From Amphiscolops sp. MND2022 (Eukaryota): DNA of 64,000 bases. The stretch spans positions 50,966,001 through 51,030,000 of the forward strand of contig OZ076409.1 of assembly GCA_964187785.1 (NCBI GenBank), read 5' to 3'. The notes under the pieces are model-generated. The model was given only the letters and a program-made list of their open reading frames with translations. It searched no databases and was not told the DNA's origin. This document shows positions 8,593 to 27,406 of this stretch, in pieces; the first letter of the stretch is position 1; the number at the start of each line of letters is the position of its first letter. A program made the position numbers and the translations under genes.

Positions 8593-8939
8593 TAAAGTAC
8601 TTGGTTGTGGTTGGTATTTTAGTTATATGAGGAATTGAATCTTTTACTGATGTTACGATTAGTACTTTAAGAGACACTAATAGAGCTGCAGTTATTAGGT
8701 CTTAGAGGGAAGACAACTAATGGGTGAAGAGTCAATTCAAGTTGTGTTCTAAATGAAGGGTTATAGTATTGAATATAAATTAGTTACATCGATTTATGGT
8801 ATTGAATATAAAGTGGTTACATCAATTATTTTACATCTAGAATATAAATGGAGTACAATTATAATTTTACAGTCTAGACATACACGGGGCGGGGGGATAA
8901 ATATAATTTATAGTATAGCATCAATCATGGTATATCATC
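8593..8939 (-). repeat. 3' LTR of giant element
   Basis: Matches 27060-27406 with one mismatch seen (taatGggt vs taatCggt). Contains short internal gtattgaatataaa..gttacatc repeats. Confidence 0.96.
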
Positions 8940-10228
8940 CGACCGGGTTTTGAAATTAAAAATGAAAGTAAACTGTGGTGTTAAGTTTAAGATTGATTAG
9001 GGTATATTCAAAAGTTGAGGTGTTGTAAAAATTGTCGGAGATTGGTTTAATGTAGAATACGAGAAAATCTAGAGAGGAAATATGGAATTTGGTTAAAAAT
9101 GAAATTTGGTATTTGCTGAAAAAAAAATTTTTTATCTCGAGAAAAAGTTGTCTTGAAATTGTCTTGAAAGTTGTCTTCGTGTTGTATCTTTCCTTACGTG
9201 AGTTGCGTGCAAGATTGGGAAGCGAAATGTTTTCAGATATTAGGTAATTTTGATCAATAAGTTAAAGAATTTATTTAGAGTTTTTAAAATAAGAATTTGT
9301 TTAGAGTTGCTTTTACGTTCATGTTGGTGATGGGTATGAAATTTCACATAAGATTTATTTTGGTATTGAATTCGTTCAAAATTTCTTATGTTTATTTCTT
9401 CCGAGGCGGCAAAAGATTTGAGTGGCAGGTAGGAGTGTGACAGAAAAAATTTTGACAAGATTTTGGCAGCCTGATTGACAGAGAAGTTCAACATTTAAAA
9501 CAAAAGATTCTTAGTTGTTTGTTAACTAAGCGTTGATCTTTTGAGTCTTGGCTTGTGAGCAACGAAAATGAAATTGTAGAACTTCAAAACAAGGCGGCGT
9601 GATCAGATCAAAGTTGGCCGCGAAAACAAATCTATGTGAGTCAACATTTGTTCAAATTTAGATCATGTGGCAGGTCATTTCACACATTTTTTTCAATAAA
9701 CAATATTTTTGAGCAAAGGAATTCAGTTGCAGAATTGGCAAAGAATAAAGAGTTTGTCAGTGAGGTGAGTGTGTTTGAATATGTGAATTGGGAAGAGTAG
9801 GGAAAAAAGAGGAGATTTTTTAGAACCGAAGTTATAGAGGAGTAAAGTTAAAAATGTTTTTGGGAGAAGGGTGAAAAACTGGAATTTAGTTGAAAAAAAT
9901 GTTTATTGAAGTGGAAGAAAATTGAATAGGAAAGGATAGCTCCACAATTTGGAAGAGAGTGGGTCGGAAGGGGCATGGGAATATGTAATTTAGAAAATTA
10001 TGTCCCGTAGAACCGAAGTTATAAGAGAAATTTATGAAAAATTTTTTTGAACACTTAAAAAAATTTTACATAATCATTAAAAAAGAAGTTGAAATGTTGA
10101 GAATAAAAAGGTGGGGGGGTGACAATCAATGTAGGTAAGAGGCGGGGTGAAATGTATGAAAACATCAAGAAGCATAGATAATTTTGAACAAAATGTACAA
10201 ATGAATTTAAAGAAACATGGATCAAAAT

Positions 10229-11146
10229 TCAATCGACATCGTTTAAAGAAGTTACTAAATTATCTAAATCATTTAAAGGAGTGGGGGATTGAGAGGGTGG
10301 TGTTACGGGTTCAATACGAATAGGAATTAATGCGGGGGAAAGAGGGAGTGGGGGTAAAGGAGAAGGACATGTATATTTTACTGGAACATGGGAACAATGG
10401 GGGGTAGCGCATTGAATGTAATTGTTATAGTTACAGCAATTATGAGAGGGGATTTGAATAGTTAATGGGGGTAAAGGTCTATGTGTGAAAGGAGGCGATT
10501 TAAATTTACGTAATTTTGAAGGGGGGAGTGTATTATTAATAATATCTAATTGGAGCGTAGTTTGATAAATGAGTTCATCTAAATGTTTTTCGTACAATTT
10601 GAGTGCGTCGATATATTGTGAAAGTTTCTGTTTATAGACCACTGTGTGGACCAGTCGACGGACAGGTGGACCGTTTCCATTTGAGAGCTGTGGAAGTTTT
10701 GGGTGCCGTGGTTTTTTGATTTGAAGATCGTTAGTTAATTGTCGAACAGCTGAATATTGTTGAAGATTGGGAGATGTTGCGACTGCATCTTGAGGGTGCA
10801 GGGGAAGAGTGGAGATTGGCAACAAAGTTGGATGTGGAAGAGAAAAAATCACGGGAATTGGAAGAGAAGGAGTTGTTGTCGCAAGAGAGCTGAGTGGCGG
10901 CTGAAGAGTTGTTGTGGTCACAAGAGAGCTGAGTGGTGGTTGAATAGTAGAAGTTGAAGAAACAGATGATGATGATGATGATGTCACAGACAAAGAAGTA
11001 TCTGATGATGAAACTACAGACGAAGAAGTATCCATGGTCGAGAGTGTGAATGTTGAAGAAGTAGAAGAGACAGGAAATGGCGTAAGAGAGTCAAGGAGTT
11101 GGTTAAGGAGAGGGTATGCCAAAGAAGAAGAAGGATAATCTGACAT
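10229..11146 (-). CDS. Accessory ORF of giant element, 305 aa, unknown function (S/T/P-rich, coiled coil, Cys/His cluster)
   Basis: Intact ATG-initiated ORF in the element's sense orientation. Helix KQKLSQYIDALKLYEKHLDEL and cluster HNCC-x7-C-x3-HC-x-H. Confidence 0.65.
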   Translation of the reverse strand: MSDYPSSSLAYPLLNQLLDSLTPFPVSSTSSTFTLSTMDTSSSVVSSSDTSLSVTSSSSSSVSSTSTIQPPLSSLVTTTTLQPPLSSLATTTPSLPIPVIFSLPHPTLLPISTLPLHPQDAVATSPNLQQYSAVRQLTNDLQIKKPRHPKLPQLSNGNGPPVRRLVHTVVYKQKLSQYIDALKLYEKHLDELIYQTTLQLDIINNTLPPSKLRKFKSPPFTHRPLPPLTIQIPSHNCCNYNNYIQCATPHCSHVPVKYTCPSPLPPLPLSPALIPIRIEPVTPPSQSPTPLNDLDNLVTSLNDVD

Positions 11147-11791
11147 GACTAAAACAAAATTTTTGTTGAATTATTTTGTATTTATTGTAGATACTAGAGA
11201 GCAGTTTAATATTGAGAAAGAAAATGTTGTGATGAAATTTATTGATTCCAGAAGATGAGTTGAAAATTAGGAAGAAAATTTGGAGTAGTAGTGAAGTTGA
11301 GAGATTTTGAAAAGTAAATGAGAAGAAGAAAATTTTAGAAAGGAAATTACTTTAAAAGTAATAAATTTAAAAGATAAAGAGCCTGTTGTCAAAATTCTTA
11401 AAGAAGAACGATCAAAAATGTCAAGTGAGAGTATTTAAATATAAAGAAATTAATAGGAAGAAGTGTCAAAGTGAAAGGAAAGTGGAGTGATATATGTAAA
11501 TGAGGAGGAAGGAAATGAAATTTTATGTATATATAATTAGGTATTATTGTCAAAGAAGATAAGATTGAGGAAGTGAAAAGAGTTATTGTTAAAGATTGAA
11601 AAAGAGTTGAGAAAAGTTTTGAGAGTATAAGATAAGAATCTTGGAGAAGAAAACGAATCATTAAACAAAAGAGGAGAAAAATGTTGGGAAATATAGGAAG
11701 GATTTTAATAGAAAAGGTGGGATTTCTTACCAAATGAGAGAATTACTGTAAGAGAAAGTAGACAGAAAAGAAACTCTGGAAAAGAAGAATG

Positions 11792-13441
11792 TTAAGATGA
11801 AGTCAATTGAGGAGGAGTTTCAAGTAAAACAAGTTTTTTGAGAAAATCATTAACATGAATTGTAGAAAGGGTCAAATTTTGGATATCTGAAGAATGAAGT
11901 TGAAGTAAAGATTGGAGAGTACGGAACGTGTCAAAAATGTGATTTAAAATAACAAATGGATCAGTATTAGGAGCAATTTCAACATGAGGGCGAAGAAGAG
12001 TGAGAATTTCGGAGACAAATTTATCTGTAGGACAAGAGAAGGAGTTGATACAAACATTAGGGTTTGTAGTCTGAAGCACATACGAATTTGATTGAGGAGG
12101 AATTGGTGGAGGAGGAGCCTGAGAAGATTCAGTTACTGTATTAGGAGGAGTATGTTTAGGAAGAGTTTGAAGAATTTCATCAGAGATATTTAAAGAGAAA
12201 TATTTATATTGTTTTTTCAAAATAAAGGAGGAGAGTTTTGCAATGATAAAATTAAGTTGTGCGAGAGAATAGTGTTTGTGAACAAGAGCTGTATATAAAG
12301 AGCGGGAGTGATCGTCAAGAGGTGTTTCAACTAATTTATTCATTTTAGGGAAGAAGTTAGGAACAGCGTTAGGAATATGAGTTGGGAGAAGAAAGTCATC
12401 ATTTACATTAAGAGCTTCTTGTGGAACAAACAACGGACGAGTAGGATCATGGTAAGAAGAAAGAATAAAATATTGTTTAACTGGATCATAGTTTCGAATC
12501 GTTCCAATAGTGAAGAGATGATTTAAAGAATAGTGAGAGTGGTAGGAAAACGGGGAGGTGAATTTGTGATTTTGAAAAATAAAATTTTGGGGATGTTTTT
12601 GTTCTAAAAACAGTTGGTAGGTTTGATGATGAAGTTTTTTAACAGAAGGAGTGGTGGTAATATCGTTTGGATTAGTATTTAAATCATACTGTGTTGGTTT
12701 AAGAAGATTGAATTGAAATTGGAAGAAACGAACACGATTATTTTGCCAAAAAGCAAGTTGTGGTAGGTTTTTGGAAGCATAGGCGACATAATGATCAAAA
12801 TTACGATCTTGAGGGAAGCGAAATTTATAAGTTGTGGGAGTCATATATAGTGAAGGAAGATTGGCTTTAAAATTGGGATGTGTGCGAAGAAATTCGTCAG
12901 TCATGGTATTAGATTGAGAAGGAGTTTTCAATGGGTGAAGGGTTGGAGGAAGGATGCCAGAGTCAATGAAGACGGGATCTTCAAGAATATTATATTTCTT
13001 TTTGTTGGGAATTTGATGATTGTCAACAGTAAAATGAAGGTTATTAGGAGGTGGGGTAGGAGAATGACGAGTTTTAAGATTTGTAGAAGATGATTTATTA
13101 AGAGATTGCGAAGTTGTAGAAGTACCATTTAAAGTGGGTTCTGGTGTGGGATTAGAATCAAGAGGAAGCGAGGAGTCAGTGACAAGAGGAAGATCGAGGG
13201 TACCAGATTTAAGAGAAAGGGGAGGTGACAATGAAACTATACTGGACAAGAGTTCTTCTTCAGCATTAACATTAGTCATTTTGAAATCACGAAGGGAGTT
13301 TAAGACAAAAGTTGAGTGCGAAACAAACGTACGTTGGATGAGTAGTTTGAAAAGGTATGTAGATGCAAAAGAGGATGTTATGAAATGTGAAAGATGAGTG
13401 ATTTTGGAGGAGAGAAGGAGAAGTGACCAAATGAAAGGCAA
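11792..13441 (-). CDS. Accessory ORF of giant element, up to 549 aa (first ATG gives MTNVNAEEE...), unknown function
   Basis: Long uninterrupted ORF in sense orientation downstream of env, with globular-looking central and C-terminal segments. Confidence 0.7.
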   Translation of the reverse strand: MPFIWSLLLLSSKITHLSHFITSSFASTYLFKLLIQRTFVSHSTFVLNSLRDFKMTNVNAEEELLSSIVSLSPPLSLKSGTLDLPLVTDSSLPLDSNPTPEPTLNGTSTTSQSLNKSSSTNLKTRHSPTPPPNNLHFTVDNHQIPNKKKYNILEDPVFIDSGILPPTLHPLKTPSQSNTMTDEFLRTHPNFKANLPSLYMTPTTYKFRFPQDRNFDHYVAYASKNLPQLAFWQNNRVRFFQFQFNLLKPTQYDLNTNPNDITTTPSVKKLHHQTYQLFLEQKHPQNFIFQNHKFTSPFSYHSHYSLNHLFTIGTIRNYDPVKQYFILSSYHDPTRPLFVPQEALNVNDDFLLPTHIPNAVPNFFPKMNKLVETPLDDHSRSLYTALVHKHYSLAQLNFIIAKLSSFILKKQYKYFSLNISDEILQTLPKHTPPNTVTESSQAPPPPIPPQSNSYVLQTTNPNVCINSFSCPTDKFVSEILTLLRPHVEIAPNTDPFVILNHIFDTFRTLQSLLQLHSSDIQNLTLSTIHVNDFLKKLVLLETPPQLTSS

Positions 13442-13593
13442 AAACGACTACAAATGAAATGGGAAAAAGGTAACGATATTTATAATTAGTATGTAAAGGA
13501 GGTAAAATATTAATATGTAAAATTGATTTGGAGGTAAGTGAATTAAAGTATTAAAATGCAGGATATGAATTGAAGAAATTAAGAAATGAAAAT

Positions 13594-16346
13594 TTATTCA
13601 GGAGGAAAACGGCAAGAAGAATAAACTTTGACAGGACTGTCAGAGGGGTCGAAAATATTATTAACAGAAGTTAAGGGGATGTCATTAGTTTTAATTGGTG
13701 GCGGAGTAGGGGGATAAAGTTTTGTAGATTGCCATAGGTTATGTATGGGGGAATCATTTGAAGAATTATCACAATTGGTGTCATCAGTAGGAGGAGAATT
13801 ATGTAAATATAAAGAGGAAGTTAATGAAGGTATTTGAGGAGGTCGAGGAGACAGATTATTATGAGATGAAAGGTGAGAATTATAATGTGGGGGTGGGAGT
13901 AAATGATCTTCAGTATTAGGGGAAGTAGAATGTGGAATAGGAGAAGAAATAGGTTTGCTTGGAGAAGAATTAGGTGAAAATCTTTGCATTGGAGTTTTGT
14001 TTTTTAAATTAAGGATTTTCGTTTTAATATTCGTATGGTATTTGGGTGGACGAGGTTTGGGACTAGAAGATAGAGTATGGGTCTTTGCCAAGGGGAGTGG
14101 GGGGAATCTGAATCGTTAGGATCTGATGGTGAATTGGATGATTTAATCATAGCAGTCATCATTGTTTGGGTAATGGTTCCAAAGAAACCAAAGCCTAAAG
14201 CAGTAAGTACAGAGATTTGTTTTTTAAGCAAATTTCGAACAGTAAATGAACGATAAATACTAAAGAGTGTATTGAAAGCAAATTGTAGGAAGAGAGCGGT
14301 AGAGAAATAATTTCCACATTGGGTTAAAATATAGCATGGGTAGCCAAAAAGTTTTATGAAAGCATCGGTGAACCAATCAGGTGAAAAAAATGGAGTTAAG
14401 TTAAACATATAGTCATGAAGACCAATTCGAAGTGAACGGTAAGGATTATCAGGAAATGAATTATTAGATTGTTGATTCATGAATTCATAGCTAATAGCTT
14501 TTCCAAGGAGTTGAAGAGTGTTGTCGGAGTGTTTAGTAAATAAAACACGATTCCAAAAATGTTTCAATTCTTTTTGAGAATAGATTCCAGCATCTTGAGC
14601 GGTAAAGGTGTTAGGACTAATAGCAGTTTGAATTTGAGTCGGTTCAAAAAGAAGAGGAGGATCTTTTTGAATAGGTTGTGGAGTTAAAACATAATATTGA
14701 TCAGTATCAGGGTCAAGAGATATTACATTTTGAGGATTATTTTCACAAGGAATTTGATTAGCATACTCAAAAGTTTGACGTGTAATAGGGTCAACATACA
14801 TGACGGTGTCAAGATAATTAACAGGAATTTTGTCATAGCATTGGTCTGCAATATAAAGAGGTGAAAGATGATGAGGGCAGTCGTATAGCCAGGCAGTAGA
14901 GCCTTCGACATATAAAAAGTTACTACGGTTTTGAGTTAAGAGAAAACCAGCAAGTTGTGGATTTTTTACGGACATGGCGAGAATAGTTAAAAGTTGAGTT
15001 CTTTCAACTTCACATATAGTATGGAGGGTGTTAAGTTCGGCAACAGACATGCTTTTAAATACATGATTTATAGAATAATCAATTTTTGTATTAATATGGG
15101 CTTCATAGTCAATAGTGGCAAAATTATTGGAGGAATTTAAAGCAGGAAAAAGAAATTTATTTTGGGTATGAATTAATTTTCCAGATATTAACTGGGTAGT
15201 AAGTTGATTATATTGTTCATTTTGCGGTAGTTGAAGAGGATTGGGTTTACCAGTTTGCATATTAAATCCTTCTTTATATGTTATAAAAAGATCAGGGTAT
15301 TGAGTAAGATGTAGAGGAGTCGGTTTATTACAAAACATTTTATTTTCAGGGAAAATTTCAAAACGAGAGAGACGGGTTTGAGATTTGGTATCATGATAAG
15401 GAGTATCGGTTGAAGTAGTGGAGGAGTGGTTATTAAAAAAGTGTTCGGTTTCAAGCCAATAGCGATTATTAAGTTTAGACATTCGGCCAATAAAGGAATG
15501 AATGGAAAATATTAAACAAAGGTCTTCAGGAAACCAAACAATGGTAAAAGGTGTTAATATAGTCGGTTTGCAAAAACCATCATCATGGAGGCAGGGTAAG
15601 GTATGTCCATGGTAAATAAGTTTGTTATCTTTATCATCATAAGTAATTTCAATTTCTTTAACAATGAGAGACCAACTATCTTTTTCGATAATATATTCAT
15701 AGCGATCCCAACAAACAGCTTTTTCTTTTAAGGTAGAATTTAAAACTAATTGGGAATTGCTTATCCGAGCAAAAGCACCATAGTGAAAGGTATTGAGTTT
15801 AGTAATACGAAAAGGAGGTTGTTTTGTTTCTAAAAGGCGTTGTTTTTGAATATCATTGAAAAATGTAAAAGAGTTGGAGTAATTAAAAGCATCAAGTTGA
15901 GGATTATTAGTACCATTTAAATGGCGAATAGCATGTTTACATTCGGTAGGATCAAGAGTACGGGGGCGTTCCATAGTATTTTGGTGATAATCTGTACGGT
16001 CATGGCGACGGTATTTGTAATCGGATTGGGCACAGACAAATTTTTCACGTTTAACATAGGCTTCACAAGTCCAGGCTTTAAGACGTTTAGCTTTAGCTCG
16101 AACAAAAACATCAACTATAGCACGAGTACTTTCAAAAGTAGAAGGAGATTGAGCACAAGGTTGGACTCTGGTAAGACTAAATTGTCTTAAATTGTGTTGT
16201 TTAGAACAGTCATAATGAGATACCAAGAGATCCGATATATGAGGATCGTTGGGATCCACATGATCAGGAGAGGTATTAATTTGGAAAGAAGCTAAGAATA
16301 AGGAGGAAAAGAAGTAAAAGAACGAGTGAAGAAAGGAAGAGAGCAT
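13594..16346 (-). CDS. env: Envelope glycoprotein, chuvirus-G / Tas-env / herpes gB-like (class III fusogen). 780-aa ORF with a probable frameshifted S/P-rich cytoplasmic tail (13594-14091)
   Basis: N-terminal signal peptide, then YDC...SLTRVQPC...C...C, CEVERTQLL...NPQLAGFLL, CYDKIPV...MYVDPITR...QIPC, GIYSQKEL. Multiple N-glycosylation sequons and C-terminal hydrophobic segments. Confidence 0.85.
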
Positions 16347-16347
16347 G

Positions 16348-17664
16348 TTAAAATTGTGCGGTATATTTTAAAAACGTTAGGGTATTAAGAAAAGTGATTG
16401 AACCGTGGAGAAGACGGAAGGGGGGATGGTCGCTGACAAAAAGGTTAAGATTTGTGGTAATAAATGGGTGAGGAAGGGATTTAAAATGAACTGTTGTATG
16501 TGAAGGAATAAGGTGGGGGCTTAAGTTATGGAATTTTACTGTAATTTCAAATTTGAGTTCTAAATTTGTATCTTCAAGACGAAGAAATTCTTTACGACGG
16601 CGTGCATCAGAAATGTGAGGATTTGAATTAAGTTTATGGGTTGCAAGGTAGAGAAAACGAGGGTCTTGGCGGGGGTGGTTAACAAGGGTGCTATTTACGA
16701 TTAGAGGGTAGTCGACACGATTAGGTGTAGGGGGAGTAGAGTATTGGTCAGTAGTAAGGTCAATATTAAGTATATGGCTGTCAGATGAAAGATTACTGGA
16801 GTTTTGAGAAGTGGGACGAGAGAAAAGGTGACCAGTGTGAGTATAAGAGGAAATAGAAGAGCGTTGAGAAAAGGCAGTGTCAATTCCGGAAGTTGGAGAA
16901 TTTGCTGTTAAAGATTCGGAAGAAAGAGATTGAGCGTGGTGACGTAAAAGAGAAGAGTTAGTGCTTGCAAGAGAAGGGGAAAGACGACGATTATTACGAA
17001 GGTTATATCTATGACGAAGAGGTGGGCGAAGAGTAGATTCGGAGGTATTGTCGAGTAGGTTATCTAAAGAAGAAGTGGTGTATTTAGAGGCGGAATTTGA
17101 AGGAGGGAGACGAGGATAGAGAAGAGAGCAAGTAGTTGAATCAACTTCGCTTAAATCAGATTTCTTTTGAAGAGAATCAAGGGATTCGAGAGCAGGAATT
17201 TTCAGTGGTTTAGTTAAGGGGAGTGAAGATTTAGAAGAAGTATGAGAACAAGGTGGAGGAATGGAAAAGGAATGATCTAATTGGGAACGTCTACGGAAAG
17301 ATTTTATGGAAGTAGGTATAAGAGTTGATTTGGGAATGTTTGGATTATTAATATTGCGTAGGAGAGTAGGATTAATATCACTAGGATCAGGGATATGAAA
17401 GGAAGGAGGGGGAGAATGGGCAGGGGTTATATCAAAAGGGAATTCAGTATCAGAAAGTGGGAGAGTTAAAGCAGTTTGAGTATGTTGAGGAACAGAAGTT
17501 TTAATAGGAGTGTGACTTGGAGTGTTAACAGGAGTGGTATCTAAAGAAGGGGTGATTGGTATTGGATTTAGGGGAGGTTGTTGAGGAGTTGGTAAAACAC
17601 TTTGTGATGAAGGTATAGTATCACTTGAAACAGAAGAAGAAGGTTGAGAGGAGGAATCAGACAA
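16348..17664 (-). CDS. Accessory ORF between pol and env, 438 aa (TTG start), S/P-rich N-terminus with a compact C-terminal domain
   Basis: Open frame ending 1 nt before the env ATG (TAA-C-ATG). Contains LYPRL and RYNLR motifs. Confidence 0.65.
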   Translation of the reverse strand: MSDSSSQPSSSVSSDTIPSSQSVLPTPQQPPLNPIPITPSLDTTPVNTPSHTPIKTSVPQHTQTALTLPLSDTEFPFDITPAHSPPPSFHIPDPSDINPTLLRNINNPNIPKSTLIPTSIKSFRRRSQLDHSFSIPPPCSHTSSKSSLPLTKPLKIPALESLDSLQKKSDLSEVDSTTCSLLYPRLPPSNSASKYTTSSLDNLLDNTSESTLRPPLRHRYNLRNNRRLSPSLASTNSSLLRHHAQSLSSESLTANSPTSGIDTAFSQRSSISSYTHTGHLFSRPTSQNSSNLSSDSHILNIDLTTDQYSTPPTPNRVDYPLIVNSTLVNHPRQDPRFLYLATHKLNSNPHISDARRRKEFLRLEDTNLELKFEITVKFHNLSPHLIPSHTTVHFKSLPHPFITTNLNLFVSDHPPFRLLHGSITFLNTLTFLKYTAQF

Positions 17665-18029
17665 AAATACAGTAAGATCCAGGATGGAAACAAAATGAAA
17701 GTTTATTGGGGTGGTTTTAGAAAATAGAAATTTGTGTGGTGTTAAAACAGAGAGGGTTAAATATGAAGGGATGGAGAAAGCTTATTATTGAGAGGAGAGG
17801 AGATATTGAAGAAAGGTTTGAGAAGATTTAAGACTTATTATTTTTTATGAAATCAAGTTTTTATTAGAGCAACCGTTCAGCTAAATTCAGCAATATAAAG
17901 TGAAGAAAGGTGCATAAGAGACAATTACTAATGACATTGTCATAATTAAATTGTCATTCGTCAGACTGTATTAGAAGTCTAGACTAACGTCAGTATGGAA
18001 GGGTAGGAAATGCAATTAAAATTGAATAT

Positions 18030-19812
18030 TTAATCAGGGGGGAAATTGATGTTTGGTTTGGTGGGATTATATTGTCGGGGGGGAAGTGAACGTAGATTAT
18101 AAGGAGAGTGAGGAGCTCGTGTGTAAGTAGTTTCATTTGGAGAATTAGGTATATCTAAAGGATCAAGTGAAGGAGATGAGGATGAAAGATTTGAAGAATC
18201 AGCAATACGAGGAAAGAATTGGGGGAAAGAATCATTTGAGGAATGGGAATAATAAATTGGATTAGGAAGCATTTCAGAGTCAGAGTCTTGAGAGTCAAAA
18301 GTAGTGTCAAGGGTATTGCGAAAAGAAGGAGAGGAGTGTAAAAAGTTTTCGTTAGTAGGAGTAGAAGGGGGAATATTATGTAAGTTATCTAGTGAAGAAG
18401 AATATCTGGAAAGGTTTTGATATGTAGGGATGGAAGTGGGGGAACTGTTATGTTTTTTATGATTCGAAGATGTAAGAGTTTGAGACTGATTTGAGGTTTG
18501 GAGTGGTTCTAAGGAGGAAAAGCGAGAAAAGGTATCTTGGTAAGATTCAGTATCAGGATTATTAATAAGAGAAGGAGTAGAGTAGTAATGTTTAATATAG
18601 GGAAAAATTATAGGTTCTTTGGGATAATATGGTAATAATATGATTTCGATGGGTTTGAAAGGTAGAGCCGTCTTGAGAAAGGAGTTCATATGTTACTTCA
18701 GAAAGATGGTTAATGATTTTATATGGGCCAATTCGAAGAGGTTTGAGCTTTTTTGAAAAGTTAACAGGTTTAAAATTAGTATGAATGACAAATGTATTAA
18801 GAGGTAATTGTTTTAGGTGAGTTGTTTCGAATGTAGAACTTTGAGAATTAAGTTTATGGTTTATATGACGATGGACAGTGGAATATATTTCTAACATTGC
18901 AGTCTCAGCTGCTAAAAGCCAGGAGGAGATAGGTTTTTCAAGAATTGAGTGAAAGAAGGGATTAAGATCGTGGGTGCTGTAATGGGAATGGGGGGGAAGA
19001 GATTCACAATAAGTTGCGATACAATTTTTTGAAGCATTACGAGGTAAGTTAAGAGAAAAGGTGAGAGGTATACGAGGATGAGTATGGAAAACAATCTGAT
19101 AAGGAGAAAGTTTAAGTTGAGAAAGAGGTGTCGTATTATGAGCATATGCATACATTTGTGTTTGAAATGACCAATTGGTAGGAGGATTTTGTAAAAAAAT
19201 TCGAAGATGAGTTCCAAGGTTTCGGTTTTGAACTTCAACTAGACCATTTGTCCAAGGAGAGTAAGGAGTTCGGGGTGAGTGATTAATATGAAAAAGAGAG
19301 CATAGATGAGCCATGTCTTGATTTATATATTCAGTACCTCGGTCTGTAACAAGATATTGAGGGGGACCAAATTTTGTGATCCAATGGTGGAGAAGAGTTT
19401 GAATAGCATATTTTGAAGTAATATGAGGAGCTGGGTTTGTAACGACAAAATGACTGAATGCATCTATGATGACAAAAATATAGGAGTTGTTTTGTGAAGA
19501 TGGAGAAATAGGGCCTTTAGTATCCATAGAAATCCGATAATTAAAGTGGGTAGCATTTTCATAAAAAGGAAGAGGAGGAGAAATGTTTTGGGGTTTAATA
19601 GGAAAATGCTTATTAGTTTGACATTCTATGCAGTCATGGATGAAAATTGAGAACCATAAAGGTAAATGAGGGATGAAATAAAATTGATTAAATGTCTTAA
19701 TTGAGAGTTTTTCACCGGAATGACCATGAGAATGTGTTTTACTAAATGCAGCATAGAAAAGTTTGAATGGTAGGCATATACGTGTTTGGTTAATAGAGGG
19801 TTGAGTTTTAAT
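18030..19812 (-). pseudogene. Integrase of giant element (HHCC, DDE, GPY/F, long S/P tail), two frameshifts
   Basis: HSHGH...DCIEC, MDTKGP, VTDRG, GLVEVQN, GPYKII. Shifts at ~19812 (T run) and ~18635. The tail ends PYNLRSLP. Confidence 0.9.
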
Positions 19813-22064
19813 AAAATTTCTTCAAAAACCCGAGAATTAGGAGTATAATATTGAATAAGATGAGAACTTGGATCAAAGTATAAATGTTGAAATTGTTTAT
19901 AATATGTATATAAAAAGGAGTTAGCTTTAATAACTGGAGTCAAGGAATGAGGTCTTTGTTTTTGTTTTAACCATTTAAATACTGTGGAAAGGACAGGATC
20001 ATCCTTTTGAGCTTGGAGTAAAATAGGTACTGTGAGAAACGTGTCAGAAGGAAGGAAGAAACTATCAAATGCTTTACGATGAGCAAAAAAGGAGGGGTCA
20101 AAAAATGGTAAAGATTGCGTGTGTGTGGTTTTTGGAGCAGTTTGAGTTATAGCATTATTTTCAATAGTACTATTAATAATAGGAGAGGAATTGGTAAAGT
20201 TGGTTATGATGTCTTGAGACAAATTGATATCATTGAAATAATGGTGTTGTATTTCGGTAAAAAGAGTGTGAAGTTCATGAGATGGTTGGGAATGCTGATG
20301 AGGAATACGTTTAAGAACAGGATCGTCCGTTTCGTATAAATCAGTTTCATTTAAAAGGGGGTTTTCTTGAAGTAAGGTTTTGACTTTATTTTTGACAGGT
20401 TTTTTGTATTTATTCAGGAATGAAGAAACAGATTGAAATGAAAAGGAATCTAAAGGAGTGTATTTAACAACATTGCCTTTATCTTGTATACGAAGTGTGA
20501 ATTGATCATCACCGTAATCAGCCAAGATTAGGTGTGAATCATTTTTTTGTGTAGGAAGAACATCTTCATGTTTTACGAGGTAGTGAATAGGTTGTAAAAT
20601 ATTGTTATTTTTAAGTTGAAGAAAATCAATATGAGGAGGAAGAGTTTTGTGTTGAAGTTGGCATGTTTGGGTATTAATAGTCGAAAAATCTCTACTAAGC
20701 ATATCTGCAACAGTAAGATTTGTACCAGCTGTGTGGATTATTTGTAAATTTGAAAATTTGGTTAATAACATTTGAGCTTTATATTGTCTAGGAGTTAGAT
20801 TACCTTTACGGGTGAAAAGGAAAAGAATAGGATTGTGATCTGTAAAAATAGTTATTGGAAATTTGGAGCCAATTATAATAAATTCATATTGAGAAAGGGC
20901 AAAGGTAATAGCGCAAAGTTCTCTATCATAGGTAGAAAGTTTTTGTTCTTGTGTTGTTAAAATACGAGAATTATAAGAAATTATTTGCATTTTATTTTTG
21001 GAGTTTGGTTGAAATAAAACTGCACCTAGGCCTATTAAAGAGGCATCGACAGTTATATAAAACGGATGAGTTGTATTTGGGATAGCAAGTTCTGCTTCTT
21101 TAGAAAGAGAAAGTTTGATTTGGTTAAAAAGTTTATCTAAATCGGGGGTCCATTCGAATGGAATATCATCATGGAGAAGAGTGTAAAAGGGTTTTAAAGA
21201 GATGTGTAATTTGTTGATGAACTTGGAGTAAAAATTCATTGATCCAATAAAGCGCATTAATTCAGTTTTTGAAGTAGGAGTTTTTAATTTGTGAAGAGCA
21301 TCAACTTTGGAAGAGATAGGTTTAATTGTATTATTACCGATTTCATGTCCAAGAAATTTGACGGTGAGGAGGATATAGAAAGATTTTTCAGGAGCAATTT
21401 TAAGATTATTTGTTTGACAAATTTGATGAAGTTGTTCAATTAAGGTTAACATATGTGGTTTTGTATGTGCGAGGAGAAGGATATCATCTATATAAACTAA
21501 TGCAAAACCTTGGTCAATAAGTTTTTGAAAGAATGAATACATTTGTTTGGTAAAGAAATTTGGTAAGCCTTTAAGGCCATAAAATCCACGGGTGAAAGCG
21601 TAAAGTTTGTCACCAGAAGAGAAACTTGTTAAAGTTATAGTTTCTTCATCTAAAGGAGCGTGGGCATAAGCGTACATAAGGTCAATAGCGGATTTGAATT
21701 TTTTGTTAGCACGTGCAAGTTGGGGGGCTAGTGGTTCAATAGGCCAAGATTCGAAAGATTGATCAGTGTTTGAATTAAGATGGCGTGCGTCTAAAACGAC
21801 TTTAATAGTATCTCCCTTAGGGATAATAATAAGGGGGTTTAAAAATGTAGTACCATAAATGGATTTGTCAGAATGAGTGGAACCAATTTGACGAATAATA
21901 TTGTGTTTTTCTAATTCATCAAGGAGTGTTTTTAATTTTTCTCTATAGTGAATAGGAACTTTGGTAGGTCTTTGAGTTTGAAGTTTAGCATTAGGTTTAA
22001 GACGAATTCTAAAAGGAGTAGCTATCCGGCCAACATCATTTTTATGTGTAGCGTAGCAGGATCG
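19813..22064 (-). CDS. pol: Reverse transcriptase + RNase H of giant element (in frame with gag-pro across one TAG)
   Basis: VLDARHLN, IDLMYAY, FYGLKGLPNFF, YIDD, VDAS, RELCAI, TDH, ADMLSR (Ty3/gypsy type). Confidence 0.93.
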
Positions 22065-25000
22065 CTATTTAACAAGAATGGAGCAAAGTTGTAAATATTC
22101 TTCATCAGTTACATCAGAGTATTGGAATTTAAATTTATGAAGGAATTGTTGAGTGTCTGGTGAATATGGTAATGATGGAAGAGGTCGGGTTAAAATTTGA
22201 GAAGGTTGCAAATTGTTTATTTCAATTTGAGGGTTTCGAAGAGAAGAACGTCGGCGAGGAGGTTTGGGTTCAGAAAGATCAGGATAATATGAATGAAATA
22301 CAGTGTGTATTAAAGAGTTAACATCATTAACTTTGTAATGAGTTGGTTGAATATTAGTGGCTGGAACTTCAATGTATCCAATAGATCCAGGGGCAAGAAT
22401 GGCAGAATGATGTGTGATATTTTGAATAATCACAGAACAACTGGAATGTTCGGTATTAGTATTTTGATATACTTGGAGGAAATTAAAGGTGGAGTTGAAG
22501 CGTGTGTTAAAAAATGGATGGGGTGTGGAAGGAAATATAACTTCATTATCGGAAGTTTTAAATGTTAAAGGAAGTGTTGGTTGAATTGGAAAATGAATAA
22601 TTTGAGAAGCATTTGGTTTAAAATAAACTTTATTTTTAACATTGATGGTGTATATGTAAGAAAAATATGGATAATCTTTTTCTTTATGAGCCGTAAAAGG
22701 GAGAGTATTGACACGAGATTCATGTGGGGTATTGAATGTTAATGACATGCTTTCAATATTGAGGGTTTTAACATATTTTTCAAAGAAGGGAGTTCCAAGA
22801 ATATTATATTTAATATTTGCAACTGCAAAAGGAATAACAAGGGTACGAGTATTTCCTTGGAGGGAGGTATGAAGTGTAAGTATAAGATTATGGAGAATAG
22901 GTACTTCAGATTTATTGGCGACAGTTAAAGTTTTATATTCATTTTGAGATGGGGAGTGTTTTGAACATTTTAAAAAATGATCGGCTAAAATGGTGAAGGT
23001 GGGTAAATTTAAAACACAGATGGATGCTCCACTGTCAAGTAAGAATAATAGTTCTAATTTAGAGGGAATAGAGGTATCTTCCTTGGGTTTAAAAAGAAAT
23101 AAATTAACAAACCAAGTGGAAGGTGTGAGAGCATTAGCATGTTCAGTAGAAGGTGAAGAAGATTGGGGGAATGGAGGATTAGGGTGGTACATGTTTATTT
23201 CAAAATGAGTTTGTGAAGGGGAGTTGCTTTGAATGGGTGGTGTAGACGGATGTGTAAGATTTAAGGAAGGTTTATATTGAGATGGGGAGGGGTGATTTGA
23301 ATTTGAATGAGATCGGCTACGATAACGATCATGGCGTGGTTTAGAAGGAGGACGATAAGGAGAAGTGTATCTGTTAAAAGTAGAAGTATTAAAGTTGGAG
23401 CCACGTTCACGAGAACGGGGATAATATTTAGATGGACTACGAGAAGAATTGGAGTTATAATATGTTCGTGAAGAAGAATATGGTTTAGAATTTTGATGGT
23501 AATGTTTGTCATATCTAGATCTATCACGATTATGAGATGGGGAATATGTACGAGAGGATGTTTTATAGTTGTATCTAGAGCGTGAATGTGAACGTGAATT
23601 AGAACGAGAATGGTAGCGATTGTCGTAGCGATTGTCGCGAGAGGATTTGCGAGATTGATTACTATAACTTCGACTACGGTATCGAGGATAACGAGATTTA
23701 TTTGAAGGAGTTTTAAAATGTTGATAAAAGGTAGGAGTTGGAGATCGAGATTGTGGTTTTGATTCTTTGAGTAAATTAAGGCGACGAAAGCAAGTTGAGA
23801 CAGAGTGATTATTTTTATGGCAAAAAGAACAATATTTTTTAAATTGAGGTTTGGATTTATTGTTCGGATCAATGACTTGAACGTGTGGAGGTTCTGAAGG
23901 AGGATCTTGAATATTTGTATTTTGTTGAAAAGTGGTAGATAAATTGTTTATTTCAAGTGAAAGTTCTTGAGTTTTAATTTTTTCAAGAGTGATATCTTCG
24001 GAATCGACCATATTGACAAGAGAGTGAAAAGGAATTGACGGTTCTAAAGAACTGGAAACATGTTTAACTTGGCGTTTGTTGGCAAAGTCTTTTAGTTTTT
24101 TTGGGAGACCACGAGTGAAAATTTCATTGCATTTAAGGTTAATAGTGGACGGATATTCATTGTACCATCCTTGTTTAACAAGTGTTTCGACTTTAAGAGC
24201 AAAGTGACGGACATTTTCATTATCTTTTTTAACAAGGGAGAGAGCTTCAATTTGAGCATGGTATGCATGTTTTTGAGAATAAAATTGTTTCTTAAAAATT
24301 TGGAGGAAAGATGACCAATCATCTTTATAAACTTGGGGGAGGCGATCAAACCAATTAGAAGCAGTTCCTGTAAGGGAACAGTATAAGAGAGACATTCGAC
24401 GAGAATGCCAGGTTAAATATGAGTGAATATCAGTAGGTTGAGGACCAAGTTGAAATGTTACTCGAGCACTAAGATGTGCCAAAAATTTTTCAGGAGGATA
24501 AGTATGGTCAAGGCCATCAAATAGTTTAATGGGATCAGAAAGAGCGGCAAAAGGGACGGAAGGGGTTGTGGGAAAAGGAAGAGATGGCTGAAGAGAAGAG
24601 TTGAAAGGTATTGTTGAAGTGGACAGAGTAGGTTGAGGGGGGTTAGGAGGAGGTTGGTGAGAATTAGTGGGGAAATTTTGAAAAGCTGGATGAAGAGAAA
24701 CATAAGGATTATATGAAGTGGGTTGTGTATTAGAAGAAGAAGTTTGGGTAATAGAAGAGATTGGAGGATGTGGAGGAAAAGATTGATTATGAAGAGTATT
24801 ATTGAAAGAAAGAGGAATGGGGGGTAATGTGGGAATGGAGGAGGTAGAGAGTGAAACTGAGTTGGGGGGAACAGTAGGTGGAGTATTAGAAGGTGTGTTA
24901 TATTGATTCGGAGAGTTGGAAGGAGAGAGGTTTTCATTATTTAAGGTGACTTGAGAAGTAGAAGTAGGATTATGTTGATTGTTAAGAGAGATGGGATTTA

Positions 25001-25934
25001 TTAAAGCATTTGAAGATGAAGGAAGAGTTTGAATAGAGATGTTGGAAGTTGTATCAGTTGAGGGAGGTAGGTATGATTGTTGAGTATAAGGACGAATAGG
25101 AGAGGGAAGGTTAAGACTTTTATTAAGACTATTGGGGTCATAGGCAAGATATTGAAAATGAGAGGATGGGAAATCAAGGAGATTATAATACTGTTTGTGA
25201 TGGTTATCAGAATTAATAATAAAAGGTAAAAGTTCATCTGAAGAAAACTGTTGAGGAAAATTTATACATGCATCTTGGAACTTTGAGTGCCAAACGAGTT
25301 GGTAGTTGTGTCTAAAAATTTTTCGGAGGAAGAGAGAATAAATTTGAATTTGTTCTTTGGTTTTTGTATTGAGGGTAAGATTTTGAAAGAATTGATATTG
25401 AAAATGGTGAATTTGAAGAATATCAGTTGTGAGCCAATGATGAGGATTATTTTCAATAGTTCTAAATTGTTCAATATTAGAAAGATTGAAAAGGGATTCC
25501 TTTTGAAGAAGGTCCTGTATGGAAGAAGGATTAAAAACATGTTTGGTTAAAAGGTTATTGTTTTCTTGAAGATGATTGAGGAATGTGGTAAAGACTTTAG
25601 CGATAGGGATGTAAATATTATTAGGGTAGATGTTTTTACGAAATGTATCGGAGCGATTTTTGAGAGAAGTGAAGGGAATAGAAAATGGGGGTTCTTCAGA
25701 ATTTAGAACTAGAGAATGGGTTTCAATATAATATAAATATGAATCATGGTGTTCACGAATAAGAGGAGCTGTATATATATCTTCAGGGTAGGTTTCAAAA
25801 GAAAGAGGAGTGGTGGAATTGTAAATGAGATTGTTAAGAAATTGAGTGAGGGTTTGTGAAACATCACGGGTAATACGTTGAGTGGTATTGAAAACAAAGG
25901 GGAGAGGGATAAGAGGTTCAATTGGATCAGTCAT
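22065..25934 (-). CDS. gag: Gag-protease polyprotein of giant element, 1289 aa
   Basis: ~300-aa N-terminal extension, P/S/T/N linker, capsid-like FDG...LTGTASNWF...WSSFLQIFKKQF, CX2CX4HX4C knuckle (CSFCHKNNHSVSTC), RS-rich tract, LLDSGAS protease. Confidence 0.93.
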   Translation of the reverse strand: MTDPIEPLIPLPFVFNTTQRITRDVSQTLTQFLNNLIYNSTTPLSFETYPEDIYTAPLIREHHDSYLYYIETHSLVLNSEEPPFSIPFTSLKNRSDTFRKNIYPNNIYIPIAKVFTTFLNHLQENNNLLTKHVFNPSSIQDLLQKESLFNLSNIEQFRTIENNPHHWLTTDILQIHHFQYQFFQNLTLNTKTKEQIQIYSLFLRKIFRHNYQLVWHSKFQDACINFPQQFSSDELLPFIINSDNHHKQYYNLLDFPSSHFQYLAYDPNSLNKSLNLPSPIRPYTQQSYLPPSTDTTSNISIQTLPSSSNALINPISLNNQHNPTSTSQVTLNNENLSPSNSPNQYNTPSNTPPTVPPNSVSLSTSSIPTLPPIPLSFNNTLHNQSFPPHPPISSITQTSSSNTQPTSYNPYVSLHPAFQNFPTNSHQPPPNPPQPTLSTSTIPFNSSLQPSLPFPTTPSVPFAALSDPIKLFDGLDHTYPPEKFLAHLSARVTFQLGPQPTDIHSYLTWHSRRMSLLYCSLTGTASNWFDRLPQVYKDDWSSFLQIFKKQFYSQKHAYHAQIEALSLVKKDNENVRHFALKVETLVKQGWYNEYPSTINLKCNEIFTRGLPKKLKDFANKRQVKHVSSSLEPSIPFHSLVNMVDSEDITLEKIKTQELSLEINNLSTTFQQNTNIQDPPSEPPHVQVIDPNNKSKPQFKKYCSFCHKNNHSVSTCFRRLNLLKESKPQSRSPTPTFYQHFKTPSNKSRYPRYRSRSYSNQSRKSSRDNRYDNRYHSRSNSRSHSRSRYNYKTSSRTYSPSHNRDRSRYDKHYHQNSKPYSSSRTYYNSNSSRSPSKYYPRSRERGSNFNTSTFNRYTSPYRPPSKPRHDRYRSRSHSNSNHPSPSQYKPSLNLTHPSTPPIQSNSPSQTHFEINMYHPNPPFPQSSSPSTEHANALTPSTWFVNLFLFKPKEDTSIPSKLELLFLLDSGASICVLNLPTFTILADHFLKCSKHSPSQNEYKTLTVANKSEVPILHNLILTLHTSLQGNTRTLVIPFAVANIKYNILGTPFFEKYVKTLNIESMSLTFNTPHESRVNTLPFTAHKEKDYPYFSYIYTINVKNKVYFKPNASQIIHFPIQPTLPLTFKTSDNEVIFPSTPHPFFNTRFNSTFNFLQVYQNTNTEHSSCSVIIQNITHHSAILAPGSIGYIEVPATNIQPTHYKVNDVNSLIHTVFHSYYPDLSEPKPPRRRSSLRNPQIEINNLQPSQILTRPLPSLPYSPDTQQFLHKFKFQYSDVTDEEYLQLCSILVK

Positions 25935-26170
25935 TAGGAGTGTCTATGAGGAAAATAATGTAACCAAATCCAATCCATAATAATATCAGGGTGAATTGAC
26001 GGTTCAATTGGGAGAGGGAAGAAATACCGATGAATTATTTGGAAAAGGGCAAAATAAAATGAAGAGAGAAACGAATGAAAGTATGTGGGTATTATAATAA
26101 GAAAAAGGGAAATGAAGACAAGTTGAAAAAGAGCGATGAAGGGGTTATGGTGAAGAAAAAGGAGGTTCAT
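25934..26170 (-). CDS. Small hydrophobic leader ORF (78 aa) whose stop overlaps the gag start (TAATG)
   Basis: ATG-initiated with two hydrophobic stretches. The minus strand reads ...tcc TAA TG act. Confidence 0.4.
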   Translation of the reverse strand: MNLLFLHHNPFIALFQLVFISLFLIIIPTYFHSFLSSFYFALFQIIHRYFFPLPIEPSIHPDIIMDWIWLHYFPHRHS

Positions 26171-26679
26171 ATAAAGATGGAGGAGAAAAGAAGGAAAGTG
26201 ATAAAAGGAAAAAAAAGGAAATAAGGGGAAGTAGAAAGGGGAGAAGGGAGAAGGAGACAGAAAGTTAAGAAGAAGGGGAATTAGTGAAAAAGGGATGTAA
26301 CAATTTTTTCAATGAGGAGCATTAAAAAAACAAGCATTGCAAAAATGTAGGAAACGAAAAGGATGATAGTGGCGAGGTTTTCAGTGAGAAACATTAAAAA
26401 AGATTATGTTCGATATTGGTCAAAAACATGGGGAATGAAAGGAAGAATAAATTTGTCAAGAAGAAGAAGAACAATGGCACAGAGACCAAGAAAGTAAAAA
26501 AGTATTAGGCAAATACAAACAGAGTCATTGAGGGAAGGCATAAAAAGTTTTTGGAAAAGATGAAAATGGAGAGATGTTGAAAATAAGAAAGGAAATGATA
26601 TAAAATGAAAGGAGAAGGGTTGAAAAGGTGGAGCCGTTAGAGGCGAACTAAGATACAAGGAGTTAAGGGGAAAAGGAAA

Positions 26680-26980
26680 TGTACCAGCGAAAAGCTGAAT
26701 CACAAAGGTGATTAGTACAGAAGGCGAGATTGTACCAGCACGGAGCTGAATCACAAAAGGTGATTAGTACAGAAGGGGAGATTGTACCAGCACGGAGCTG
26801 AATGACAAAAGGTGATTAGTACAGAAAGAATAGTGTACCAGCAAAAAGCTGAATCACATGAAAGTGATTAGTACAGAAAGAAATGTACCGACTACTAGGT
26901 CGAACCACGGAAGGTGATTAGTACAGAAGACTTCAGATTTGTACCGACAATGAGTCGAATCACGTTGTGTGATTAGTACA
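26680..26980 (-). ncRNA. Array of six three-way-junction RNA modules in the 5' leader of the giant element
   Basis: Sense unit UGUAC-U-AAUCAC-loop-GUGAUU-CAGC-loop-GCUG-GUACA. CAGC/GCUG changes to CGAC/GUCG compensatorily. Loops and linkers vary. Confidence 0.75.
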
Positions 26981-27044
26981 GAAAGTTTGTTTGAAAGAAA
27001 AATGAGAAAAAGAAAAAAGTGTTTTAGGAAAAGGAAAGAAGTGA

Positions 27045-27057
27045 GCTGGTCGCACCA
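27045..27057 (-). promoter_or_regulatory. Primer binding site of giant element (tRNA not identified)
   Basis: The sense strand reads LTR ...GTACTTTA-AC-TGGTGCGACCAGC. Confidence 0.65.
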
Positions 27058-27059
27058 GT

Positions 27060-27406
27060 TAAAGTACTTGGTTGTGGTTGGTATTTTAGTTATATGAGGA
27101 ATTGAATCTTTTACTGATGTTACGATTAGTACTTTAAGAGACACTAATAGAGCTGCAGTTATTAGGTCTTAGAGGGAAGACAACTAATCGGTGAAGAGTC
27201 AATTCAAGTTGTGTTCTAAATGAAGGGTTATAGTATTGAATATAAATTAGTTACATCGATTTATGGTATTGAATATAAAGTGGTTACATCAATTATTTTA
27301 CATCTAGAATATAAATGGAGTACAATTATAATTTTACAGTCTAGACATACACGGGGCGGGGGGATAAATATAATTTATAGTATAGCATCAATCATGGTAT
27401 ATCATC
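27060..27406 (-). repeat. 5' LTR of giant element
   Basis: Direct repeat of 8593-8939, adjacent to the PBS. Confidence 0.96.

Follow-up and report, generated by a model that had tools for sequence, protein, structure and literature searches.

The window analyzed here, a stretch of 64,000 nucleotides from Amphiscolops sp. MND2022 (assembly GCA_964187785.1, contig OZ076409.1, positions 50,966,001 to 51,030,000 of the forward strand), holds a single long terminal repeat (LTR) element of 18,812 bp at window positions 8593-27404 on the minus strand. This element is, with good confidence, a young endogenous copy of an envelope-bearing Ty3/gypsy (Metaviridae) retrovirus-like element that has a complex gene set and a putative expression logic linking the env gene to the preceding gene X. 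X and a second frame, Y, are genes of the element, which are under purifying selection and kept in related families; a third frame, Z, is less certainly an accessory gene. What goes beyond the first-pass annotation of the window is that X and Y are under selection and conserved between families, that the Y family is broad, and that X and env share an AUG-free layout with a conserved CUG; gypsy elements with an env of the glycoprotein B (gB) type and extra open reading frames (ORFs) in LTR elements were already known. More broadly, we tentatively propose, with rather less than even confidence, that a clade of animal metaviruses with a gB/chuvirus-type env independently evolved a complex-retrovirus organization, with a CUG-read regulator X on an AUG-free bicistronic X-env mRNA, a widespread accessory family Y, recent activity, and a large share of the genome. 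The window element and its near-identical siblings are called family 1, and two sister families in the same genome are called families 2 and 3. Coordinates marked el run 5' to 3' on the minus strand (el = 27406 minus window coordinate).

Selection and conservation of the accessory genes

The LTR was searched for in the window's own 1.07-Gb assembly, which gave 607 first-look candidates, and 40 were scored. All 40 matched at 97-100% identity and 32 formed 16 pairs, 12 of them spaced 18.41-18.55 kb; at least 12 collinear copies are present in the genome. Ten siblings were retrieved in two halves each and make up, with the window copy, the 11 copies compared (pairwise identity, 95.8-99.1%). The ten are full length, collinear with the window copy, and bounded by one LTR pair each, and gag, pol, and the gB/chuvirus-like env lie within one LTR pair in 11/11 copies. 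Siblings without the env and accessory block, which the first-pass annotation of the window had named as a sign of a one-off passenger insertion or misassembly, were not found, the block being retained in 10/10. Perfect 4-bp target duplications flank nine siblings; the remaining one (L033/L034) has none and is possibly a recombinant.

Ratios of nonsynonymous to synonymous substitution (dN/dS, omega) were obtained from pooled Nei-Gojobori counts over the 55 pairs of the 11 copies. Omega was 0.16 for both env and Y, 0.17 for X, 0.22 for gag-pol, and 0.41 for Z, compared to 0.71-2.58 for the same stretches shifted one or two bases (0.81 and 0.95 for Z); the pairs are not independent and the values are hence descriptive. 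The difference between in-frame and shifted values is consistently large. Within Y, omega ranged from 0.08 to 0.20 with 0.08 in the core, and the 56 codons upstream of its ATG, taken as a control, gave 0.78 with no frame preference versus 0.17 downstream. The dN/dS check per ORF proposed in the first-pass annotation thus detected frame-specific purifying selection on gag-pol, X, env, and Y, and the several accessory genes claimed there hold for X and Y (omega 0.16-0.17, both kept in family 2) and less firmly for Z. Two leader ORFs listed alongside them are probably not genes, as they gave no clear coding signal (omega 0.54 and 0.44, compared to 0.68-1.00 in shifted frames) and are under at most weak constraint. 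Two long alternative-frame ORFs within gag likewise showed no frame-specific constraint (omega 1.25-1.35).

The env search returned 87 proteins (ENA records), including two large clusters of 603 and 1,758 members at 51-53% identity, and both clusters, families 2 and 3, were located in the window's own genome. Their env proteins are 77% identical to each other. Searches with the two env sequences gave about 12,000 first-look candidates each; among the best 50 of each, identity to the query was 98-100%, and 49/50 and 48/50 were free of internal stops. Short stretches from one copy each were examined (C2:101954400-101963799, L052 and L051; C3:69916300-69918499, L053). Family 2 has a 418-codon frame after the integrase with 35% identity to X over 392 aa (E 2e-35) and a 449-codon frame after env with 43% identity to Y over 295 aa (E 8e-67), and family 3 has a Met-less frame of 420 codons between pol and env. 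X is therefore kept in both sister families and Y in family 2, the one checked downstream of env, with the same gene order.

It has to be considered whether the extra frames are passenger or decaying sequence, derived from a one-off capture, a nested element, or a misassembly. None of X, Y, and Z has a Pfam match, and Z frequently carries lesions (10 in the 11 copies) and is not conserved in family 2, all of which would suit such an origin. The collinear siblings with their single LTR pairs and, in nine cases, perfect duplications, the frame-specific purifying selection on X and Y, and the homologues in the same order in families 2 and 3 contradict it; the passenger origin is refuted for X and Y, and overall we regard it as very improbable.

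Families 2 and 3 appear to be younger than family 1 and to have far more copies. Three family-2 env copies lie at C9:7861239, 7879443, and 7897647 (minus strand), spaced exactly 18,204 bp, which suggests a tandem array of elements that share LTRs and have a similar unit length.

Age and state of the copies

The near-identical LTRs reported in the first-pass annotation, with about one mismatch, were reproduced. The direct-repeat search found one pair (8593-8892 and 27060-27359, 300 nt, 100% identity), and full alignment of both ends gave LTRs of 345-346 nt with a single mismatch, so the insertion of the window copy is recent, as had been claimed. Across the 11 copies, the LTR pairs within a copy differ at 0-4 of about 345 positions, which makes the insertions young; since the copies are nevertheless 1-4% apart, their divergence occurred during replication.

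Lesions, defined as in-frame stops and frameshifting indels, were counted against the sibling frames in the 11 copies. Most fell in gag-pol (60), followed by env (14), Z (10), Y (6), and X (1), the gag-pol count being inflated by indels specific to the reference sibling near a poly-C tract. The rate elsewhere predicts 9.2 lesions for X, the frame of which is thus unusually well kept. Over about 17.8 kb, 39 substitutions are private to the window copy. It also bears four disabling lesions, and the one TAG and three single-base shifts noted at first reading were found again: the TAG between the protease (PR) and the reverse transcriptase (RT), and 1-nt indels in the linker between RNase H (RH) and integrase (IN), in the IN tail, and in the 3' part of env. 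The expectation that intact siblings may exist was not borne out among these copies.

Aberrant LTR pairs were seen with spacings of 22.5 kb and 34.8 kb and as an inverted pair 3.9 kb apart (C5:72843366-72866205, C1405:285338-320480, and C6:881673-885913); these are copies carrying insertions or rearrangements.

Gene X and the X-env arrangement

The 438-aa ORF of the first-pass annotation is a real frame, 477 aa from stop to stop, and the figure 438 matches a gene caller's start in P0265. Its product has a disordered N-terminal half rich in Ser, Thr, and Pro, a basic RHRYNLR..RRLS motif, and a conserved C-terminal domain, for which the ESM Atlas gave no usable match. Met codons are absent from X in 11/11 copies and in families 2 and 3; the Met frequency elsewhere in the element (0.87%) predicts 3.9 per X.

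The depletion extends to all three frames. From el ~9491 to the env ATG at el ~11060, a run of 1,566-1,593 nt is free of ATG in 10/11 copies and is by far the longest such run in the element; the window copy alone has one private ATG in it (16607-16605). No ATG was present where 8.9 were expected by base composition in the run (P 1.4e-4) and 6.8 under codon shuffling in X (P 2e-4), and codon shuffling detected no such depletion in env, Y, Z, or two pol segments. The corresponding runs of families 2 and 3 hold 2 and 3 ATGs, compared to 10.1 and 10.9 expected, all of them out of frame and open for just 1-17 codons.

All 11 family-1 copies, and families 2 and 3 as well, share an in-frame CTG flanked by A at -3 and G at +4 (atcCTGgat, atcCTGgat, and aatCTGgat in families 1, 2, and 3, respectively; atcCTGg at 17682-17680 in the window), which an in-frame stop precedes by 33, 8, and 6 codons. 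Around this codon in family 1, omega changes from 0.65 with no frame preference upstream to 0.13-0.14 downstream, and the called protein of a 71%-identical relative begins at exactly the codon at this position. Between the pol stop and the CTG, all three families have a pyrimidine-rich YAG/TC site (the slash marks the presumed junction), which is preceded by TACTGAC in family 1 and followed, depending on the family, by 0-4 tiny upstream ORFs (uORFs); beyond the first, the mini-uORF ATGs of the window copy are at 17943, 17937, and 17915. In family 1, 1 nt separates the X stop from the env start (TAA C ATG, 10/11 copies); in families 2 and 3, the env ATG precedes that stop by 58 nt.

From these sequence features, the following scheme is proposed. 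Gag-Pol would be made from genomic RNA, and a subgenomic RNA beginning at the acceptor-like site right after the pol stop would carry X and env. X would begin at the conserved CUG in its strong Kozak context; ribosomes bypassing the CUG would scan about 1.3 kb and could get as far as the env AUG to start there, since no AUG is tolerated in any frame on the way. We infer a bicistronic X-env mRNA comparable to HIV vpu-env and consider the start of X at the CUG roughly an even call. Under either the CUG start or a spliced fusion, the AUG-free run speaks for the X sequence forming part of the env 5' leader.

The spliced fusion has an appreciable chance of being correct, although on balance we doubt it. 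X would then be the 3' exon of a spliced protein that takes its start and N terminus from gag, and its ATG-free state would come only from the stretch doubling as env 5' leader. The ORF after pol in Caenorhabditis elegans Cer1 has no start of its own in the available account of Sun et al. (2023, PMC10309623), and the absence of Met from X in 3/3 families and the pyrimidine-rich AG sites within the first 60 codons of X fit this model as well. It accords poorly with the stops only 8 and 6 codons before the CTG in families 2 and 3, with no AG in between in family 2, and with the candidate internal acceptors of families 1 and 2, which differ in codon phase. The nucleotide motif AT(C)CTGGAT is, moreover, conserved where the surrounding protein sequence varies.

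With respect to env, termination-reinitiation after X could replace leaky scanning, and the 1-nt distance between the X stop and the env start in 10/11 family-1 copies would favor it. Reinitiation is improbable: in families 2 and 3 the env ATG comes 58 nt before the X stop, and reinitiation creates no need to purge ATGs from three frames over 1.3 kb, yet the purge is observed.

With its disordered, phospho-acceptor-rich half, the basic motif, and the folded C-terminal domain, X is a candidate regulator like CERV of Cer1 or Rev.

Genes Y and Z

The Y ATG ends an ATG-free leader of 387 nt in family 1 (sibling S1), and in family 2 it ends an ATG-free run of 345 nt, the longest of that locus. The Z ATG is located 2 nt past TTTTGTTTTAG/ and ends a 515-nt ATG-free run. 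Y and Z thus each begin at the first AUG past an AUG-free leader, which makes separate RNAs for them probable; these would be spliced or internally started.

The profile search with Y (1.84 billion, 50% cluster representatives) gave 610 matches at E ≤ 1e-3 and 312 at E ≤ 1e-10, mostly fragments. Among 64 members analyzed with Pfam, no family was matched by more than one. There were no PDB sequence matches for Y at E ≤ 1 and only chance-level matches for its core, no usable ESM Atlas match for the core, and no confirmed hit among 218 pattern matches in a scan of JGI metagenomes with the Y alignment. The VIA-align fold search with a low-confidence model of the core found 0/48,161 chains at Z ≥ 5, the best (Z 4.8) covering 41 residues of one helical hairpin. 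As judged from its sequence relatives, Y founds a sizeable, undescribed, and unannotated protein family, since the many homologues share no Pfam family and Y has no PDB match; it is a new protein family to characterize. The Z product is rich in Ser and Thr and has a Cys/His cluster near the C terminus.

The gag-pol and envelope genes

The Pfam domains of the polyprotein appear in the order Retrotrans_gag, RVT_1, RT_RNaseH, Integrase_H2C2, rve, and a fragment of SH3_Tf2-1, and in a 2,646-aa sibling polyprotein RVT_1 occupies residues 1414-1537, RT_RNaseH 1627-1732, Integrase_H2C2 2068-2115, and rve 2135-2232. A CCHC knuckle, a DSG protease motif upstream of RT, and YIDD are visible in the translation. 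No Pfam match was obtained for about 520 aa before the capsid-like domain, the 336-aa RNase H-IN linker, and about 220 aa past the IN SH3, and the N-terminal 1,013 aa of gag had no PDB sequence match. Among solved structures, RT-RH ranked Ty3 first (4ol8, E 5.8e-34), followed by the "Enzymatic polyprotein" 8r0s (2.5e-22), which we take to be of the caulimovirus type, and foamy virus (1.1e-17); RT/RNase H p80 chains, presumably of the murine leukemia virus (MLV) type, matched at only E 6e-9 to 9e-9. The Ty3/gypsy assignment of pol made at first reading is upheld by these domains and by Ty3 RT as the best solved relative ahead of foamy virus, the RT affinity being a similarity ranking and not a tree.

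In one sibling, an uninterrupted open frame of at least 2,646 codons runs from gag through IN, and in five others the frame stops at a TGA near el 9370; the open frame and the shared TGA indicate that the family encodes a single Gag-Pol polyprotein of about 2,640 aa. The window copy is broken by an in-frame TAG at 22065-22067, a position with no stop in any other copy, and by 1-nt indels near 19810 and 18630. Retroviruses use readthrough and frameshift signals, and the location of the TAG between PR and RT would be suitable for programmed recoding instead of damage. The single open frame of the sibling, the private nature of the TAG, and the break points that vary between copies make recoding extremely improbable; it was rejected, and the TAG and shifts are private damage of the window copy.

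The env product begins with a signal peptide followed by a cysteine-rich ectodomain with 14 conserved cysteines, and it has 10-13 N-glycosylation sequons, no R-x-K/R-R (furin-type) site, and a long C-terminal tail rich in Pro and Ser. It also has a hydrophobic, membrane-anchor-like segment, which passes the hydropathy threshold only in the homologue from family 2. PF24664 (Monjiviricetes_fusion; E 5.9e-27 and 3.6e-27) is the sole Pfam family that matches env at E ≤ 0.05. The window env has a 1-nt deletion near 14091. The element thus carries a gene for a predicted chuvirus/gB-like membrane-fusion glycoprotein, and Env would allow the passage of particles between cells. The class III-type env of the first-pass annotation agrees with the PF24664 match (E 5.9e-27); the likeness of chuvirus-type glycoproteins to herpesvirus gB is structural and is taken from the available text of Chary & Hayashi (eLife 2026, PMC13524379).

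Weight of the evidence and relation to described elements

Like the non-independence of the pairs behind the omega values, several observations weigh against the overall reading. No copy among the 11 has every frame open, and frameshifts account for 74 of the 91 lesions, some of them possibly homopolymer assembly errors. As to the X-env scheme, the search of the 5' leader for a splice donor found no GTRAG and nothing convincing among all 45 GT sites inspected; in families 1 and 2, uORF ATGs separate the acceptor-like site from the CTG, so that the model also needs reinitiation; and families 2 and 3 retain 2-3 ATGs in the run, with a depletion under shuffling of only P 0.06-0.09 (env ATG counted). 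On the protein side, env had no sequence match in PDB and its profile only chance-level ones, and the ORF at the place of Z in family 2 (150 codons from ATG) had no BLASTP similarity to Z. AlphaFold2 models were too low in confidence to use, both for the whole of Y (mean predicted local distance difference test [pLDDT] score, 37.0) and for its 326-aa core modelled from 64 sequences (pLDDT 54.6; predicted template modelling score [pTM], 0.29).

The assignment to Ty3/gypsy follows from the PR-RT-RNase H-IN order, the RT ranking, and the LTRs with a primer-binding site (PBS) and a short target duplication; the LTR ends TG...TA and the lack of a purine-only polypurine tract are oddities. In having selected genes X and Y beyond gag, pol, and env, the element corresponds to a complex retrovirus, which is a functional class and not a taxon. 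Insect errantiviruses (gypsy, ZAM, and Idefix) carry gag, pol, and env between their LTRs in three ORFs of 7-8 kb, with env of the baculovirus F type expressed from a subgenomic RNA. Membership in the narrow insect Errantivirus was excluded, as the env matches only PF24664 and is not of the baculovirus F type. The RT is also not of the type found in Retroviridae, including spumaviruses, as foamy and MLV-type RTs score far below Ty3. Kuafuorterviruses (Gong & Han 2024, PMC11673190) are described as having the RT motif IADD/VADD/LADD and mostly 5-6 kb, in disagreement with YIDD and 18.8 kb here, and Odin retrotransposons, which have no env gene in the available description (Wang & Han 2022, PMC9040795), were ruled out by the presence of env.

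The nearest likeness is to the "ancient errantiviruses" of Chary & Hayashi (PMC13524379), LTR elements of non-insect metazoans with Ty3/gypsy pol and a gB/chuvirus-like glycoprotein that, as the window family, occur in multiple near-identical genomic copies. Such elements are described there in many animal phyla, and the premise of the first-pass annotation that env-bearing gypsy elements have just an F-type env is accordingly outdated. The described elements have three ORFs (GAG, POL, and ENV), whereas X, Y, and Z are added here. The search behind them allowed ≤1,000 nt between POL and ENV and ≤10 kb overall, compared to about 2 kb including X between IN and env, 18.8 kb in length, and Y and Z after env in the window element, so that elements of this kind were probably missed under these limits. 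The main text never uses the word "accessory" (0 times), and its two uses of "additional ORF" do not concern extra genes in the authors' own elements. Env-bearing gypsy elements, lately shown to be ancient and widespread, have thus been catalogued as three-gene elements by a search blind to longer ones; the window family and its two sisters show that some carry further selected genes, and length and gap filters can hide such elements from genome annotation.

Mosquito elements with a chuvirus-derived glycoprotein (Dezordi et al. 2020, PMC7642597) also have a Jingchuvirales-type env in a retroelement, combined with BEL/Pao pol in place of Ty3/gypsy; Peptidase_A17 and related BEL/Pao domains were confined to the flanking host element and not found in the polyprotein of the window element. 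Arkhipova & Yushenova (2019, PMC6431247) reviewed additional ORFs and large size in LTR elements for bdelloid rotifers, planarian Burro, and foamy-like fish endogenous retroviruses of up to 17 kb, with sizes well above 10 kb as here; the Burro extras (BIR, BCL2-like, MATH, and others) lie inside one polyprotein, and those of the window element are separate frames with their own AUG-free leaders. Cer1 is likewise a Ty3/gypsy element, the start-less ORF of which after pol leads to the regulatory protein CERV, made from a subgenomic spliced RNA, phospho-regulated, and required for genomic RNA export (PMC10309623). Cer1 differs in having no env and in the N terminus of CERV, which comes from gag exons, compared to the conserved CTG and the ATG-free link to env here.

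The start-less gene in an AUG-free env leader is a layout otherwise known from complex retroviruses. Vpu of human immunodeficiency virus type 1 (HIV-1) starts at an AUG in a weak context and has about 80 aa; X has 444 codons and would start at CUG. In HIV-1, one mRNA carries the accessory ORF vpu immediately ahead of env, and Env is reached by leaky scanning past the weak upstream start (PMC2657110), a proposed functional parallel with no homology. The element therefore offers a testable case for the convergent evolution of retroviral gene-expression strategies outside Retroviridae. In the literature covered, which excluded subscription-only papers and bioRxiv supplements, neither this accessory gene set nor, for Metaviridae, a Met-less gene in an AUG-free env leader was found.

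Organization, ends and insertion site of the element

The positions of the features are given in Table 1. All long ORFs of the element are on the minus strand. In the window copy they comprise gag-PR (1292 aa), RT-RH (812 aa), IN (409 aa plus a 220-aa tail), the frame of X, env (787 + 173 aa), a 551-aa frame with Y (495 aa from ATG), and a 313-aa frame with Z (305 aa from ATG). The composition of the sense strand is A 29.6, T 35.5, C 26.4, and G 8.4%. At this composition, stops should occur about once per 20 codons, and chance therefore does not account for frames of 300-1,300 codons.

Table 1 Features of the LTR element in the window, in order along the minus strand
Feature	Window position	Strand	Description
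5' LTR	27060..27404	-	345 bp, TG...TA termini
Primer-binding site TGGTGCGACCAGCTCA	27042..27057	-	2 nt past 5' LTR
5' leader with 52-bp tandem repeat	25935..27041	-	~5 repeat units at 26680-26928
gag-PR-RT-RH-IN polyprotein gene	18030..25934	-	Pfam domains, omega 0.22
Candidate X-env mRNA body start	17955..17995	-	Branch-point-like TACTGAC, acceptor-like ...TAATACAG/TC, AG 17967-17966, first mini-uORF ATG
ATG-free run	16347..17915	-	~1.57 kb, ends at env ATG
Gene X	16348..17682	-	444 codons from conserved in-frame CTG; no Met codon
env	13594..16346	-	PF24664; omega 0.16; 923 aa intact
Gene Y	11792..13279	-	495 aa; omega 0.08-0.20
Gene Z	10229..11146	-	305 aa; omega 0.41; weakest gene call
3' untranslated region	8938..10228	-	Stretch adjoining 3' LTR = AAAACCCGGTCGGA
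3' LTR	8593..8937	-	Repeat and sibling alignment
Flanking 4 bp ATGG	8589..8592	.	Partner TCGG at 27405-27408

Comparison with the siblings placed the LTR termini at 5'-TGATATACC...GTACTTTA-3' (345 bp, the same in 11/11 copies), that is TG...TA and not TG...CA. With regard to the span of 8593 to 27406 given at first reading, the start is confirmed and the true end is 27404, 2 bp shorter. The PBS-like TGGTGCGACCAGCTCA is kept in 11/11 copies, two of which deviate at 1-2 positions. Repeated factor-binding sites are present in the leader of Drosophila gypsy, and the 52-bp leader repeat is reminiscent of them; each unit holds GTACTAAT and GTGATTC motifs. The PBS/tRNA table of PMC13524379, as far as available, does not list the 12-nt tRNA-end complement of the PBS. 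The sequence abutting the 3' LTR (..TTTCAAAACCCGGTCGGA, 8938-8962, minus strand) is conserved in 11/11 copies and contains no purine-only polypurine tract.

The target duplication of the window copy is imperfect (ATGG/TCGG, 2/4 bases match), and the two bases adjoining its 5' LTR are the same as those found inside the element just before the 3' LTR. The target was the integrase gene of a BEL/Pao element, the frame of which (..KTLHG / GTNQV..) resumes beyond the insertion. This host element, with DUF1759 gag, Peptidase_A17, integrase, and DUF5641, occupies 4936-8592 and 27405-28513 on the plus strand.

The plus-strand GC skew is +0.3 to +0.6 across exactly the interval of the element. Sense-strand G amounts to only 8-10% in families 1-3, compared to 19-21% in neighboring elements and flanks. 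G-to-A hypermutation as the source of the G poverty was not seen among 1,072 private substitutions, the rates per 1,000 source bases per copy being 4.9 for C>T, 4.0 for G>A, 3.4 for T>C, and 1.3 for A>G.

Other features of the window

A LINE-type (long interspersed nuclear element) fragment with an endonuclease domain (Exo_endo_phos_2, E 1.3e-14) lies at 438-2097 on the minus strand. Downstream of the BEL/Pao element, a host gene at 31897-36368 on the plus strand comprises large exons of cytoplasmic leucyl-tRNA synthetase (tRNA-synt_1, Anticodon_1, RBD_LARS1, and ULD_3). BEL/Pao, LINE, and LARS1 sequences in the window mark the genome as animal-type. An unrelated gypsy-like remnant with RT_RNaseH and Asp_protease_2 was found at 44930-49467 on the minus strand; its sense strand has 41% A and balanced G and C, unlike the G-poor element at 8593-27404.

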